The notes under the pieces were generated by a model. That model worked only from the letters and a program-made list of their open reading frames with translations, ran no database searches and had not been told where the DNA came from. DNA of 64,000 nucleotides, taken from assembly GCA_963771465.1 (NCBI GenBank), contig CAVYTU010000014.1, positions 128,001-192,000 on the forward strand, read 5' to 3'. The position numbers and the translations under genes are program-made. This DNA is from an uncultured delta proteobacterium (GTDB lineage: Bacteria; Desulfobacterota; Binatia; UBA9968). This document shows, piece after piece, positions 48,370-52,130 of the stretch (position 1 is its first letter; the number at the start of each line of letters is the position of its first letter).

Positions 48370-49554
48370 ATGTTTGAAGCTAAACTAAATCGTCAAAAAA
48401 ATATCGAGCCGCGCGAACCCGACCTCAAGCCGACCCAAGCGATCCTGCTTTACGCCGCCAGCGAAGGCGACGCGAACATGCTCTACGCCGCCGGTTTCTT
48501 CGTGCCCGATCCATTTATTTATTTTCAGCACAAGAAACTCAGCTATGTCGTGATGAGCGATTTGGAAATCGACCGCGCCAAGAAACAGGCTAAAGCCGAT
48601 CGGGTGCTGTCGCTGTCGCTCTATCAGCGCAAACTGCGCAAGCTCGGCAAGACGCCGGCGAGCGCGATCGATATTTTGGATTTGCTATTTCGCGAACGCG
48701 GGATCCGCTCGCTGATCGTGCCGGCGAATTTTTCCGCTTTGCTGTCCGATCAGTTGCGCGCCAAAGGCTACAGCGTACAGATCAAGCGCGATCCATTTTG
48801 GCCGAGGCGCGAGACCAAAAACCCCACGGAAGTAAAACAAATCACCGAATCGTTACGCATCGCTCGCCTAGGACTCGAAGCCGGCATCCGCATGCTCAAG
48901 CGCACGACAACCAAACGCGACGGCTATCTCTATCTCAACGGCTCGCGCTTAACTTCGGAGCTACTCAAAACCGCGGTGAACACGACGATCATGGCGCAAG
49001 GCTGGTTACCAAGCCACACGATTATTTCCTCAGGCAATCAGTGCGTCGATCCGCATCACGAGGGTAGCGGGCCGATCAAAGCTAATAGCTCGATCATCTT
49101 CGATATCTTTCCGCGCTCGCAGCATAACGGCTACTTCGGTGACTTGAGCCGCACGGTCGTGCGCGGCCGTGCTTCGGATAAAATCAAAGCGATTTACGCC
49201 ACCGTGCAAGCGGGACAAAAAATCGGCTACGAGCAAATCCGCGACGGCGTCAACGGCAAAGAAGTTCATCAAAATATTCTCGATATGTTCGCCGCGCGCG
49301 GTTTTCCTACCGGGAAAATCAACGGCCGCATGCAAGGTTTCTTTCACGGCACCGGCCATGGCCTTGGGTTGGACATACACGAGCCGCCGCGCATCGCGCC
49401 CATCGACGCGATCCTGCGCACCGGTCACGTTGTCACGGTGGAACCGGGACTTTATTATCTCGGCGTCGGCGGCGTCCGGCTCGAAGACGTCGTGGTCGTC
49501 ACCGCCAAGGGCAATCGCAATTTAACCAACTGCCCGCAGTTTCTGGAGATTTGA
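48370..49554 (+). CDS. Xaa-Pro aminopeptidase / M24B metallopeptidase
   Basis: DIFP...GYFGDLSRT, HGTGHGLGLDIHE, TVEPGLY and GVRLED motifs. Confidence 0.93.
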   Translation: MFEAKLNRQKNIEPREPDLKPTQAILLYAASEGDANMLYAAGFFVPDPFIYFQHKKLSYVVMSDLEIDRAKKQAKADRVLSLSLYQRKLRKLGKTPASAIDILDLLFRERGIRSLIVPANFSALLSDQLRAKGYSVQIKRDPFWPRRETKNPTEVKQITESLRIARLGLEAGIRMLKRTTTKRDGYLYLNGSRLTSELLKTAVNTTIMAQGWLPSHTIISSGNQCVDPHHEGSGPIKANSSIIFDIFPRSQHNGYFGDLSRTVVRGRASDKIKAIYATVQAGQKIGYEQIRDGVNGKEVHQNILDMFAARGFPTGKINGRMQGFFHGTGHGLGLDIHEPPRIAPIDAILRTGHVVTVEPGLYYLGVGGVRLEDVVVVTAKGNRNLTNCPQFLEI

Positions 49555-49609
49555 TTCACATTTTAACTTGCCTCGATCCTTCCCATCGGGAGAACACGAA
49601 GCTACGTAT

Positions 49610-49785
49610 CGATCGAGGTGTGACTCTGGAGGAACGAAGGCATCAGCGCGAATATTTCAGTTCGTGTTCGGCGCTTGGCACAATGGTCGATCTTTGCACC
49701 AATAGTCTAAGCGGCAACTCGCCCCGCTCGCGGCTTCAAGGCAGAAAGGCTTTGCCTTCGTTCCGGAAGAGTTGCACCTCGATCG
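49610..49785 (+). ncRNA. Long rod-like structured RNA, 6S RNA candidate
   Basis: The 5' arm CGATCGAGGTGTGACTCTGGAGGAACGAAGGCA pairs with the 3' arm TGCCTTCGTTCCGGAAGAGTTGCACCTCGATCG (about 30 bp, two G-U pairs valid on + only, 3x3 GGA loop). An inner stem CGCTTGG/CTAAGCG is present; length 176 nt. Confidence 0.5.
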
Positions 49786-49815
49786 CGGCCGCACCGTGAA
49801 GAATTTGTTCTAGCG

Positions 49816-50550
49816 ATGGAAACCGACCGGCTTACCGCGCTCATTGCCGACTTAGATCATCCCGACAAACCCACCATTCGCGCCGCTGTCGACCAACTGA
49901 TCGGACTTGCCAGAGAGTCCGTCCAGGTGAGGACTGCTCTTGAGCAAAGACTCGTTGAGCTCGGGCATCGAGACTATTGGCCGGTCGCGTACGTTTTAGG
50001 CCATCTGCCCCAGCCATCCGGCGCGACGATTCGAAACTTACTCGACACCTTGGATCATCGCGAGCCGGATATTCGCTGGGCCATCGTTCTCTTGCTAGTT
50101 CGTATCGCCAAGACTGAGAGCTCCATCATCAATCTGCTGATCGAGCTGTGCGAAAATGGGACGACCAATCAGAAACGCATGGCGATCTACGGCCTGCGCG
50201 ACTTGGTCTTGAATGATGTGGTGAGCCTGCAGGCACTTCTAAGCTCACTGTCGGACCCTGACCCAACGGTAAGAGTCGCGGCGGCGACCAGCTTGAAGAA
50301 TCGAACCGACGACGCTGAGCGCGTGCGCGCTGCATTATTACAAAGCTATTTGCTTGATGTGGATATCAAAGTTCGCAGCGCCGCCGCCGTCACCTTGGCG
50401 AATATCGGATTGCCGTCGGAAGAGTTTTTGCGCGCGTTGAAGGAAGCGAGCGAAAGCGACAACAGCCAATCCAAAAAGGCCGCCACCGTCGCTCTCGCTT
50501 TGCTTGAAAAAAGAGAGCCCGCCTCAATCGCCGGCATGCGCCAACGTTGA
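49816..50550 (+). CDS. HEAT-repeat protein
   Basis: Repeated LxDxDxxVRxxAA-like units (DHPDKPTIRAA, DPDPTVRVAAA, DVDIKVRSAAA). Confidence 0.82.
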   Translation: METDRLTALIADLDHPDKPTIRAAVDQLIGLARESVQVRTALEQRLVELGHRDYWPVAYVLGHLPQPSGATIRNLLDTLDHREPDIRWAIVLLLVRIAKTESSIINLLIELCENGTTNQKRMAIYGLRDLVLNDVVSLQALLSSLSDPDPTVRVAAATSLKNRTDDAERVRAALLQSYLLDVDIKVRSAAAVTLANIGLPSEEFLRALKEASESDNSQSKKAATVALALLEKREPASIAGMRQR

Positions 50551-50559
50551 AGCGGGCCC
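50507..50559 (-). terminator. Intrinsic terminator of the small minus-strand transcript (overlaps the HEAT gene 3' end)
   Basis: Minus strand GGGCCCGCTTCAACGTTGGC-GCAT-GCCGGCGATTGAGGCGGGCTC then TCTTTTTT. Confidence 0.8.
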
Positions 50560-50625
50560 GCTAGGTGGTCTGAGGGGGTTTACCAGGCTCTAGGCCCGAA
50601 CCCCTTCAAGAAGTCCGCCTAGAGC

Positions 50626-50667
50626 CTAAGTCTCAGCCACCTCACAGTCAGTACATTTATCAATCAT
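50626..50667 (-). CDS. 13-aa micro-peptide MIDKCTDCEVAET
   Basis: ATG at 50667 preceded by AAAGGAGGTGGTCCAGAC; TAG at 50626-50628. Confidence 0.6.
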   Translation of the reverse strand: MIDKCTDCEVAET

Positions 50668-50699
50668 GTCTGGACCACCTCCTTTCCCTGCTGAAAATT

Positions 50700-50728
50700 A
50701 GTTTACGAAAGTGAATTCGCGCTGTCAA
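50700..50728 (-). promoter_or_regulatory. Sigma70-type promoter of the small transcript
   Basis: TTGACA-17 nt-TAAACT on the minus strand, with the -10 box ending about 15 nt upstream of the SD. Confidence 0.7.
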
Positions 50729-51252
50729 CGGGAAAATTGCTAAGGCAAAATTTCCGCACAGCAAGTGCTGCTAGGATCGACAGATAAAAAGAAGTTGCTG
50801 AAGAAATAAAAATGCCACGTAGCAAGGTCGCCGACTCTGGCCCGCTACCGCGCGCGACGATTGATCTGTACTGATGATTATGTTTGGCACGAATTCATTG
50901 GCGGGAGCGATGGCGATGGGAAACCGAAAAGCGGCGTGCAGTATGAGGAGAAATAACGCCCAATCTTGAACCGTGCTGACTTGCAAACAGGCGGCAACTT
51001 AAACGGCGAACCACTGGGACTCTATCGCGAAGGCGTTAATCGAGTTGTGCGCGGTGCATAAATGGCGATCGGAATCTGCATTTGGCCGTTGACCTGGCGA
51101 TGGTCAACGAGCCGCTCTTCTTGCTGGTGACAGACCGCGTCCATCCCAACGACGCCGGCTGAATCGCATTGCCGAAGGCGTCGCGCGTTAAAAACGATCC
51201 TGACACCGCGCTGAGCTCGTGTGAGAATTACAAGCCGGGCGGAACGGCAAAG

Positions 51253-51597
51253 CTAGTTTGCAACCGAGGCCGGGGCGATTTCAACCCGAAGTGAGAATAT
51301 TCTTTTTTCGGCGCGTGGAATCGCGCCCACCCCGACACTCTGGCGCGAGATAAGTTTACCGCTCTCATCGCGCACTTCCATCAAGACGAAATATTCCAAC
51401 ACTTCATTTTCACTGGAATTCTTGAGCGCGCCTTCCACCAGAAGCGCGCAGCGCTTTGGCTGAGCGCTTGGCGCCGCGCCGATGGAAACAAAACGCAGGT
51501 TATGACGGCAGAGCGGACAGGACGCCGCGCTTTTGAGAATCGTCGCCTGGCAGTGCGGACAGCTCCGTGATTCGCCCGCTACCGATACGGCTTTCAT
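51253..51597 (-). CDS. Hypothetical protein with N-terminal double zinc ribbon
   Basis: CPHC...CPLC; ATGA overlap with the upstream bactofilin stop. Confidence 0.7.
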   Translation of the reverse strand: MKAVSVAGESRSCPHCQATILKSAASCPLCRHNLRFVSIGAAPSAQPKRCALLVEGALKNSSENEVLEYFVLMEVRDESGKLISRQSVGVGAIPRAEKRIFSLRVEIAPASVAN

Positions 51598-52130
51598 CCC
51601 GCAGCTCCAGCTTTGTCTTTCGGCTGGGCTTGGCCATTGAACTTGGTGGCCTCGGTTGGGCTCCAGCCAAACTCGACATTGCCGCGCATCCGCGATCCCG
51701 CCGCCACGGTCAGCGTCGCGGCCTTGAGATCGCCGATCAGTTGGCCGCCTTCTAGGAGCTTTACCTGCGCACTGGCCACGATGTTGCCATCGACTTCGCC
51801 ACCGATGGTTACGTTGGCAGCGTCAATTTTGGCCGCGACGTGAGCGCCCTTCTCAACGCTAAAGTCGCCTTTGATATGAATGTCGCCTTTGAATTTGCCG
51901 GCGACATGCACGTCGGCGTCACCTTCAATTTTACCCTCGATGGTCACTCCCGGACCGAACACCGAGTTGCGCCGATCCCTCGCTACGTTTTCCTTGGGCG
52001 ACGCGATCGGAGTAACCGGCGTAACCGATGTAACCGGGGTAGAAATTACTGGCGCGGCACTCGATATCGGCTGCGAGGGTTGCGCTTTGTCGTTGCTTCC
52101 CTCTTGCGCGGGCTGGTTCCACAATGCCAT
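51594..52130 (-). CDS. Bactofilin (polymer-forming cytoskeletal protein)
   Basis: SVFGPGVTIEGKIEG...GKFKGDI...GEVDGNI...LIGDL beta-helix pattern; SD AGGAGG. Confidence 0.9.
   Translation of the reverse strand: MALWNQPAQEGSNDKAQPSQPISSAAPVISTPVTSVTPVTPIASPKENVARDRRNSVFGPGVTIEGKIEGDADVHVAGKFKGDIHIKGDFSVEKGAHVAAKIDAANVTIGGEVDGNIVASAQVKLLEGGQLIGDLKAATLTVAAGSRMRGNVEFGWSPTEATKFNGQAQPKDKAGAAG

Follow-up and report, generated by a model that had tools for sequence, protein, structure and literature searches.

Here we describe a small gene on the minus strand (window positions 50728-50507; all element coordinates below refer to this strand) of contig CAVYTU010000014.1 from an uncultured delta proteobacterium, where "the window" denotes the whole 64,000-nucleotide (nt) stretch analyzed. 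It is a free-standing, single-copy small RNA gene of ~185 nt, bounded by a promoter of its own and by a terminator-like hairpin. We consider it probable that the element is a ribosome-docking micro-ORF (micro open reading frame) mRNA of the rre/Ms_IGR-5 kind, that is, a ribosome-engaged, translated regulatory RNA. Along the minus strand follow the promoter, a leader, an extended Shine-Dalgarno (SD) sequence, the micro-ORF, a long imperfect hairpin, the strand CTCAGACCACC and a G+C-rich hairpin. According to the accessible text of Hahn et al. (PMC5711450), to which all statements on rre genes below are limited, the rreB mRNA of Bradyrhizobiaceae measures 165 nt, contains a 14-amino-acid (aa) small ORF (sORF) and is perfectly complementary to the 16S rRNA 3′ end over 17 nt. 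It is found mostly in the ribosome fraction, co-sediments with the 30S subunit, is weakly translated and is stabilized upon replacement of its start codon; four alpha-proteobacterial orders harbor relatives of the gene, among them the 18-aa rreR (PMC5711450).

A previous sequence-only reading of this DNA had marked out a promoter, a 15-nt anti-16S SD sequence, a 13-aa ORF ending in TAG, an 11-bp stem starting in the stop codon, an anti-SD element able to pair with an SD-like copy inside the ORF, a further pairing between a loop and a downstream segment, and a strong terminator with no gene behind it on the same strand. All of these parts were recovered in our analyses, at the positions originally given. 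Its suggestion of a ribosome-binding small RNA would, by analogy, also fit the 30S co-sedimentation and weak translation of rreB (PMC5711450).

The 16S rRNA complement, the micro-ORF and the RNA fold

The complete free 3′ tail of this organism's 16S rRNA finds its complement in the extended SD sequence, SD1 (GGAAAGGAGGTGGTCCAG, 50670-50687). The 15-nt complement AAAGGAGGTGGTCCA occupies 50685-50671, and the 16S gene of the same genome, which ends in ...GCGGCTGGATCACCTCCTTTCT, extends the pairing to 16 contiguous nt (50685-50670, one G-U pair) or 18 nt (50687-50670, two G-U pairs). The 18-nt pairing presumably takes in all of the single-stranded tail and, beyond it, the two final pairs of helix 45. 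Across both strands of the 6.9-Mb genome (~13.8 million positions), only two positions pair with all 16 tail nt, namely the rDNA antisense and SD1, and the next best are three sites with runs of 14. The predicted SD1:tail duplex amounts to -33.5 kcal/mol, and SD1 has the complementarity of at least 16 nt to the own 16S 3′ end that is demanded of rre genes.

The micro-ORF (50626-50667) runs from ATG at 50667 to TAG at 50628-50626 and encodes 13 aa, MIDKCTDCEVAET, with the codons ATG ATT GAT AAA TGT ACT GAC TGT GAG GTG GCT GAG ACT TAG. Its start codon follows the last paired base of SD1 (50670) after 3 nt (ACA), or the 15-nt complement ending at 50671 after 4 nt (GACA). Relatives were compared in a set of 110 sequences, 30 from the Rfam model described below and 80 from a pattern scan. 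In 107 of the 110, an open start codon (ATG in 60, TTG in 33 and GTG in 14) lay 2-8 nt past the SD sequence and in frame with an internal Glu-Val pair, compared with 2 and 49 for the other two frames. A stop codon stood exactly three codons after Glu-Val in 108 of the 110 (TAG 97, TGA 7, TAA 4), and all 136 published loci contained GAGGKG, 9 nt and then a stop. Although the ORF varies in length from 11 to 16 aa, relatives differ by whole codons, and the stop codon is replaced only by other stops, in at least six separate groups judged by record titles. That the stop changes only to other stops is hard to explain without translation.

The invariants of the family are therefore the extended SD sequence, a start codon, an in-frame GAGGUG (Glu-Val), three more codons and a stop (TAG, TGA or TAA). 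The Glu-Val codons themselves form a second in-frame SD-like site, SD2 (GAGGTGG, 50637-50643), which lies a fixed 9 nt before the stop and is invariant in alignments A2 and A3. By sequence geometry, GAGGUGG ends 5 nt before the P-site codon when the stop is in the A site, as compared with 7 nt before the AUG for the same heptamer in SD1 at initiation, so that a terminating ribosome could hold an SD-like helix with SD2; the predicted energy of this helix is -12.3 kcal/mol.

Six unpublished genomes entered some of these comparisons. One of them (G005, locus L029) supplies a row of alignment A1 and is counted among the family-ORF, relative-comparison and P1 own-versus-foreign sequences. Three (G183, G285 and G233; loci L166, L173 and L176) belong to the Actinomycetota count obtained with model R1, to the residue reading and to the P1 own-versus-foreign set, and two (G166 and G213) to the Actinomycetota R1 count. 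Alignments A2 and A3, model R1, the 136-locus count and the shuffle test of helix P0 are confined to published genomes. Two pattern matches, L035 (Halioglobus) and L086 (Opitutaceae), were rejected as chance because they lie inside long open frames without the stop, and they were excluded from A2, A3, the P1 own-versus-foreign test and the 136-locus count. A locus from an Ignavibacteriales-titled metagenome-assembled genome (MAG; L082) was retained in the family set: it keeps the SD sequence, GAGGUG and the stop but, lacking ATG, GTG and TTG where the start is usually found, would need ATT or ATA. Separately, a soil metatranscriptome contig (run X1) from a close relative carries an in-frame 3-nt (one-codon) insertion at 50658 together with three substitutions.

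The 194-nt RNA has a predicted folding energy of -95.7 kcal/mol (z = -6.67), and none of 200 shuffled sequences was as stable. Helices were identified with RNAalifold and pair counting in alignment A1, which comprises 21 sequences of the window's own type (type A), one of them unpublished. In the leader, which reads CAGCAG ahead of SD1, the strand GCAG (50688-50691) directly 5′ of SD1 pairs with CUGU (50647-50644), consisting of the last base of the Asp codon and the Cys codon before Glu. This helix, P0, is paired in 100% of the 21 type-A sequences (variable pair GC in 14 and GU in 7) and, as GCAG:CUGY, in 99% of cells in 26 type-A sequences. Helix P1 joins GGTGGCTGAG (50632-50641), which includes SD2, to the anti-SD-like strand CTCAGACCACC (50564-50574). 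The pairing of GGUGGCUGAG with CUCAG(N)CCACC is present in 97.6% of cells. In a wider comparison, which includes four unpublished loci, the GGUG plus three codons of a sequence paired better with that sequence's downstream region than foreign family segments did in 108 of 126 cases (-18.3 vs. -15.6 kcal/mol; e.g., GCUGC:GCAGC vs. GCUAC:GUAGC), figures that are descriptive given that relatives are not independent.

Helix P2 begins with the final sense codon and the stop (5′ strand TTAGGCTCTAGGC, 50617-50629; 3′ strand GCCTAGAGCCTGG, 50583-50595). Its 11-bp stem (50627-50617 with 50595-50585) co-varies, with compensatory pairs at 82:122 (GC in 13, AU in 8) and 78:125 (CG in 16, UA in 3, UG in 2). 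The apical region of P2 (50598-50616) contains a weak local stem, P3, which is 92.5% paired, mostly by G-U. Taken together, P1, P2 and P3 are paired in 96.4% of cells, a share that fell to 31-53% on sliding the partners. GGGGTT (50604-50599), the 3′ arm of P3, also serves as the 5′ arm of a pseudoknot (PK) with AACCCC (50575-50580), which lies between P2 and P1. PK is 88.5% paired, and its pair 112:138 is GC in 16 and AU in 5 of the 21 sequences. Since 112:138 goes from GC to AU while the P3 partner only wobbles, the true compensatory change belongs to PK.

These helices appear to determine much of what is conserved in the peptide. Only Glu-Val (GAGGUG) is constant in 28 published Actinomycetota loci and two same-class relatives: Cys, Arg, Leu or Pro precedes it, and the last three residues vary. 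Read in reverse complement, the four bases of the leader that immediately precede the SD sequence spell the variable codon and the G that opens GAG, in seven Watson-Crick combinations (CACA:UGUG, CGCG:CGCG, CGCA:UGCG, CACG:CGUG, CCAG:CUGG, CGAG:CUCG and CAGG:CCUG). All four P0 pairs occur in 38 of 65 non-type-A sequences, compared with 23.3 ± 2.2 (maximum 31) in 2000 shuffles. Several of the misses are alignment gaps or fall in a "type B" subgroup, whose partner sits a few bases upstream. The CxxC motif, which the sequence-only reading had taken for a possible metal or redox sensor, is not conserved within the order: its first Cys is absent from many same-order relatives, which carry one Cys, CxC or CC, and its second Cys is set by P0, because the codon co-varies with the 5′ leader. 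The proposed comparison of peptide with nucleotide conservation accordingly went against the peptide, in that Glu-Val alone is invariant and the neighboring codons follow RNA pairing. We conclude from these alignments that selection probably acts on the RNA fold and on translation as such, and not on the sequence of the peptide.

The most serious competitor to the ribosome-docking mRNA is a gene for a functional 13-aa micro-protein, with the RNA structures tuning only expression or stability. Proper start and stop codons in 107-108 of 110 sequences would be expected of such a gene, as would a peptide that is nearly identical across same-genus loci and similar across families (e.g., MID..CEVAET across two families), and clade-level conservation is also reported for RreB and RreR by Hahn et al. 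(PMC5711450). We nevertheless find this explanation unlikely, because the family-wide invariant Glu-Val falls on the SD-like GAGGUG, leader pairing dictates which residue precedes it and the last three residues co-vary with the P1 strand. Furthermore, the peptide ranges from 11 to 16 aa, its N-terminal residues are highly variable even within Mycobacterium, and synthetic RreB and RreR are unstructured and their overproduction produced no phenotype (PMC5711450).

Relationship to Ms_IGR-5 and the rre genes

At gathering thresholds, Rfam yielded no match in the 64-kb window. In E-value mode, the model RF02471 (Ms_IGR-5, "Actinobacteria sRNA") matched over its full length (positions 1-184 of 184) with 35.3 bits and E-values of 1.1e-6 to 5.5e-6, and its blocks aligned in order: SD, UGUGAGGUGGCUG, stop-codon hairpin, CCCC..CAG..ACC and terminator. 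The Rfam search proposed with the sequence-only reading was thus empty at the cut-offs and informative below them, and the accompanying remark that no named family was recognized gives way to this end-to-end, sub-threshold match and to the fit with the published rre class. RF01867 (CC2171, Caulobacter) reached 16.3 bits (E 0.19-0.6) against a 75-bit cut-off; its consensus and that of RF02471 both open with the same extended SD sequence. Weak rows for mir-9201, mir-3940, mir-3072, IRES_Bip and Ms1 were dismissed as chance, these being eukaryotic families or scores far under the cut-offs.

The element and RF02471 share GGAAGGAGGUGGUCC, a short frame ending in ..GAGGUG plus three codons and UAG, the stop-codon hairpin, a spacer resembling AAUUCCCC, the strand CAGNCACC and the terminator. 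They differ in structure, the RF02471 consensus having the SD sequence paired to GCUGCC and no partner for the CACC strand where our comparison supports P0 and P1, and in that RF02471 is filed as a non-coding small RNA (sRNA) of Actinobacteria, to which the element's lineage does not belong. According to the accessible parts of several reports, Ms_IGR-5 homologues bear footprints of the ribosome in M. abscessus and M. smegmatis (PMC4974804), were found among the transcripts of Streptomyces (PMC8079986, PMC8780764) and were detected in M. smegmatis under cold stress (PMC10454040). Similarly, CC2171 was seen by Northern blot in Methylorubrum, and its function was given as unknown in the accessible text (bioRxiv 10.1101/2022.01.24.477521). 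PMC11133741 was rejected as a source, since its accessible text concerns a different small ORF.

RF02471 matched once in the element's own genome and, at E <= 0.1, in 37 of 41 same-order genomes (one unpublished, G005 with locus L029) and in all 21 of good quality, almost always as a single copy. An exact-pattern scan of one genome per species, following the collection of homologues suggested earlier, found at least 119 stretches, and among the 80 loci listed the architecture was shared, L035 and L086 being chance. These listed loci include Actinomycetota titles (Mycobacterium, Mycolicibacterium, Streptomyces, Kitasatospora, Gordonia, Brachybacterium, Saccharopolyspora and others), the titles 'Candidatus Binatia', 'Deltaproteobacteria', Syntrophobacter(ales), Rokubacteria/Methylomirabilota, Thermodesulfobacteriota and Nitrospiria, and also Solibacteraceae/Terriglobia, Ignavibacteriales and Leptospira weilii.

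A sequence-only model, R1, built from 102 published sequences, gave single near full-length matches in 56 of 121 genomes of an Actinomycetota sample, five of these genomes being unpublished. Near full-length matches were found in 3 of 121 genomes of an own-phylum sample, all in the class of the window's genome; four further own-phylum matches were 17-bit partial hits to the SD block only and were not counted as family. In samples of 81 genomes, R1 matched 2 from the phylum of genome G162, 7 from the phylum of the Solibacteraceae locus and 1 from the phylum of the Nitrospiria locus, the last being the query genome itself. The G162 sample shares a genome with the own-phylum sample and therefore represents the same phylum. 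Single R1 matches were recovered in nine of the 10 source genomes checked; the tenth, without an R1 match, is that of the chance locus L035. Nearly all genomes have one match, and two matches, apparent paralogues, were seen in a few (G334 and G430 with RF01867, G186 with R1 and G009 with RF02471).

Record titles deserve caution in this context. Near-identical type-A loci are titled Binatia, Deltaproteobacteria or Syntrophobacter, and such conflicts make MAG titles an unreliable guide to phylum. One genome titled 'Candidatus Methylomirabilota' (G074, identical to G544) falls, in the taxonomy used, in the phylum-level group of the window's genome. A blastn search for plasmid or phage copies of 50560-50700 returned no match, more distant mobile copies being outside the reach of this test. 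Of 14 control genomes, those of Caulobacter and Thermus thermophilus, the latter a standard organism for ribosome structures, had sub-threshold matches to both RF02471 and RF01867, and those of E. coli, B. subtilis, Corynebacterium glutamicum and Deinococcus radiodurans had no match to either.

In anatomy, the element resembles the rre genes closely. Both are free-standing transcripts of ~165-185 nt with their own promoter and terminator, in which a 16-17-nt complement spans the whole free 16S tail and precedes a tiny sORF (14/18 vs. 13 aa); in both, genomic context is not conserved between lineages and part of the SD sequence engages in intramolecular pairing. Unlike the rre genes, whose complement reaches the first base of a GTG start, the element has its ATG 3-4 nt after the complement. 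Their peptides are unrelated to that of the element, and GAGGUG plus three codons and a stop, P0, P1 and the pseudoknot are not described for rre genes in the accessible text of PMC5711450. Whereas 30S binding was observed for rreB, for the element it is a prediction from duplex energy. On sequence grounds, the element is Ms_IGR-5 by homology and akin to the rre genes by anatomy, an assignment that is sub-threshold and reaches beyond the groups of earlier reports.

RF01867 provides a further point of comparison. Like the element, its consensus starts with GAAAGGAGGUGAUCCAGUG and continues with a short frame and a terminator, but its ORFs have 14-24 aa and begin with MS.. directly after the complement, compared with 13 aa in the element, and only one subgroup has WEV, two codons before the stop instead of three. 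In a Pseudomonadota sample, RF01867 matched 21 of 141 genomes at E <= 0.01, one of them above the cut-off, and the ORFs were rre-like: MSHC.., MSY.. (14 aa) and MSR..GTAWEVxx (18 aa). In an rreR-like 18-aa subgroup (L195, L197, L199 and L190), we observed that the 3′ part of the RNA carries CCCACCUCC(UU), a near copy of the 16S 3′ tail, which could pair with the extended SD sequence or with GGGAGGUG in the ORF.

More familiar classes of small ORF fit less well. As in leader-peptide attenuators, a short ORF lies within alternative RNA structures, but the element has neither a downstream gene on its strand nor a regulatory codon run. Some type I toxin mRNAs likewise have a sequestered SD sequence, but the peptide MIDKCTDCEVAET is acidic, polar and hydrophilic, and no antisense RNA gene is evident. 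Both classes had already been set aside in the sequence-only reading. Our literature search returned neither later studies of rre genes nor any paper that connects them with Ms_IGR-5, and it did not find the rule set described here in print; the alignments in Fig. S1 of PMC5711450 and the discovery reports of Ms_IGR-5 and CC2171 were outside its reach.

Gene boundaries, transcripts and neighboring genes

The promoter is of the sigma-70 type, with TTGACA (50728-50723), a 17-nt spacer and TAAACT (50705-50700), and matches the consensus at 10 of 12 positions. In the region 49500-51700, three promoter-like sites were found, compared with 0.8 ± 0.8 in shuffled sequences, and the promoter scan detected no opposite-strand promoter within 50507-50728. 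Transcription is predicted to start near C50693. TTGACA and CGTAAACT/AAGT are kept in same-genus loci, and TTGACAA...TAGGAT/TAAGAT is kept in a second genus. At the other end, the predicted fold contains a long G+C-rich hairpin resembling an intrinsic terminator, followed by the U-tract TCTCTTTTTT (50507-50561). A simple terminator scan gave no match here because it allows only loops of 3-8. Relatives retain a hairpin and a T-run of different sequence.

Fourteen metatranscriptome runs from 10 studies (soil, rhizosphere and freshwater sediment) contained 48-67% of the sampled words. In the four runs examined, RNA-library contigs without differences covered 50484-50673 (190 nt) and 50498-50683 (186 nt, in a run as small as 6.8 million letters), and further contigs with 0-1 differences covered 50383-50682 and 50380-50629. 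The two short contigs fit the predicted transcript of ~50693-50507. Contigs also reach beyond the gene at both ends, past the promoter to 50787 (X1) and past the terminator to ~50380 (X1 and X2); this cover could represent read-through, mRNA of the convergent gene or DNA.

The terminator overlaps the 3′ end of the next gene, a convergent HEAT-repeat (HEAT_2) gene on the plus strand (49816-50550), and the window annotation has no gene downstream of the element on its own strand. A HEAT_2 gene adjoins the element in 35 type-A loci (drawn from L001-L030, L047, L076, L096, L099, L100, L103 and L110), being convergent and downstream in the window's genus and in 'Binatia'-titled loci, and upstream on the same strand in the second genus. 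The linkage has therefore been kept through inversion. Actinomycetota loci instead neighbor genes for a THAP4-like heme-binding protein and a class IV aminotransferase, and other lineages an ABC1 kinase, an HtrA-like protease or TsaD; high-GC loci contributed many spurious overlapping ORF clusters to this reading. A conserved neighbor as a functional clue across phyla was rejected because neighbors differ by lineage. On the far side of the promoter, ~520 bp without an evident gene separate the element from a 114-aa ORF (51253-51597, minus strand), which overlaps by 4 nt the bactofilin gene (51594-52130, minus strand) and has an N-terminal CxxC...CxxC zinc-ribbon-like motif and a weak UPF0547 match below the cut-off.

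Competing explanations and meaning

Three further explanations were weighed against the ribosome-docking micro-ORF mRNA. The first is a 30S sponge, an abundant RNA that sequesters 16S tails and thereby shifts translation, for instance, to leaderless mRNAs. Complementarity to the full tail, the very stable predicted duplex, the presence of the element in very small metatranscriptome runs and the association of rreB with ribosomes and 30S subunits (PMC5711450) are what such an RNA would display. However, a pure sponge needs no start codon, fixed stop, SD2 or fold of P0, P1, P2 and PK, the contigs give no reading of abundance, and ribosomes far outnumber even overexpressed rreB, with growth unchanged (PMC5711450). 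We judge the sponge improbable.

The second is a base-pairing, trans-acting sRNA whose ORF-like features are by-products of SD- and anti-SD-like targeting sequences. Rfam files both Ms_IGR-5 and CC2171 as sRNAs, the transcripts reported for Streptomyces, M. smegmatis and Methylorubrum in the accessible texts cited above were detected as such, and the CCACC strand could mask the SD sequences of target mRNAs. Were the ORF a by-product, its in-frame start would not be kept, its length would not change by whole codons and its stop would not mutate only to other stops; homologues also carry ribosome footprints (accessible text of PMC4974804). This leaves the explanation quite improbable.

The third returns to the mutually exclusive SD/anti-SD switch of the sequence-only reading. 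In the predicted ensemble of this genome, P1 has a share of 0.63 and the pairing of SD1 with the CCACC strand 0.37 (duplexes of -20.8 and -15.1 kcal/mol); in the 19 of 21 relatives in which the strand was located, P1 averages 0.73 and the alternative 0.16, exceeding 0.3 in four. The 8-bp pairing of the anti-SD with the real SD is borne out for this genome and a few relatives, and shrinks to 5-6 bp in most others. An equilibrium, riboswitch-like device, with CCACC toggling between SD2 and SD1 and a CxxC peptide sensing metal or redox state, is hence very hard to credit: two SD copies and one anti-SD strand do recur across lineages, but the low share of the alternative in relatives shows that the equilibrium switch is not a family trait, the SD1 pairing is short in most of them and CxxC is not conserved. 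A kinetic version driven by the ribosome, in which unzipping of P1 frees the strand to cover SD1, is possible as a model.

Several points weigh against the reading of the element as an rre/Ms_IGR-5-type ribosome-docking mRNA. The RF02471 score of 35.3 bits lies under the 45-bit gathering threshold, which only one of the 41 relatives exceeds, and the likeness to rre genes could be convergent, as the low RF01867 score indicates. Compensatory changes in P1 are few within type A, six of its 10 pairs never varying; the spacing of SD2 to the stop could reflect P1/P2 geometry instead of ribosome geometry; and related sequences are not independent, so that shuffle tests such as that for P0 overstate significance. 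Peptide conservation within lineages, noted above for the element and for RreB and RreR, points the same way. The contigs prove neither transcription, strand nor ends and have no silent control stretch alongside. Lastly, the experimental work concerns other lineages, and the function of rreB is termed "elusive" and its overexpression had no growth phenotype (PMC5711450).

In the fold that the comparison supports, P0 encloses SD1, the start codon and the greater part of the ORF in a loop and abuts P1, in which the in-frame GAGGUGG and the next codons pair with the downstream CCACC strand; the stop codon opens P2, whose loop forms the pseudoknot. If the element is such a ribosome-docking mRNA, its parts could work together as follows. 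A 30S subunit would dock very tightly on SD1, and the translating ribosome would have to unzip P0, P1 and the base of P2, reaching the stop with GAGGUGG at an SD-like distance (5 nt) from the P site. Ribosome occupancy would in this manner remodel the RNA and probably set its stability and activity.

A bolder proposal, which we offer tentatively and regard as rather unlikely in its full form, is that rre genes, Ms_IGR-5 and the element represent one ancient, cross-phylum, ribosome-gated RNA device. In this device, SD1 would capture the 16S anti-SD tail whole and hand it to SD2, 9 nt before the stop, as the ribosome unzips coaxial P0/P1 and meets the pseudoknot at the stop, and its role would be to report or control the state of the 30S subunit and not to make a peptide. 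Such a device could report the availability of free subunits or the integrity or maturation of the 16S 3′ end, for example after the action of nucleases that remove the anti-SD.

The class itself has been known since 2013-2017 under separate names, as Ms_IGR-5 in Actinobacteria and as CC2171 and rreB/rreR in alpha-proteobacteria, and we find that the Ms_IGR-5 type extends to a soil lineage from a different phylum and, sporadically, to additional phyla. What ~140 loci add are the rules of its construction (extended SD, micro-ORF, GAGGUG plus three codons and a stop, a codon dictated by P0, SD2 paired with CCACC, and a stop-codon hairpin with a pseudoknot) and evidence that the conserved codons owe their constancy to RNA pairing and not to the amino acids. 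These rules make the class testable by precise mutants, and they suggest that neither label, "non-coding sRNA" or "small protein", captures what matters about it. Should the RNA sense or tune the state of the 30S subunit, translation in major soil and industrial bacteria would prove to be controlled at a new level.

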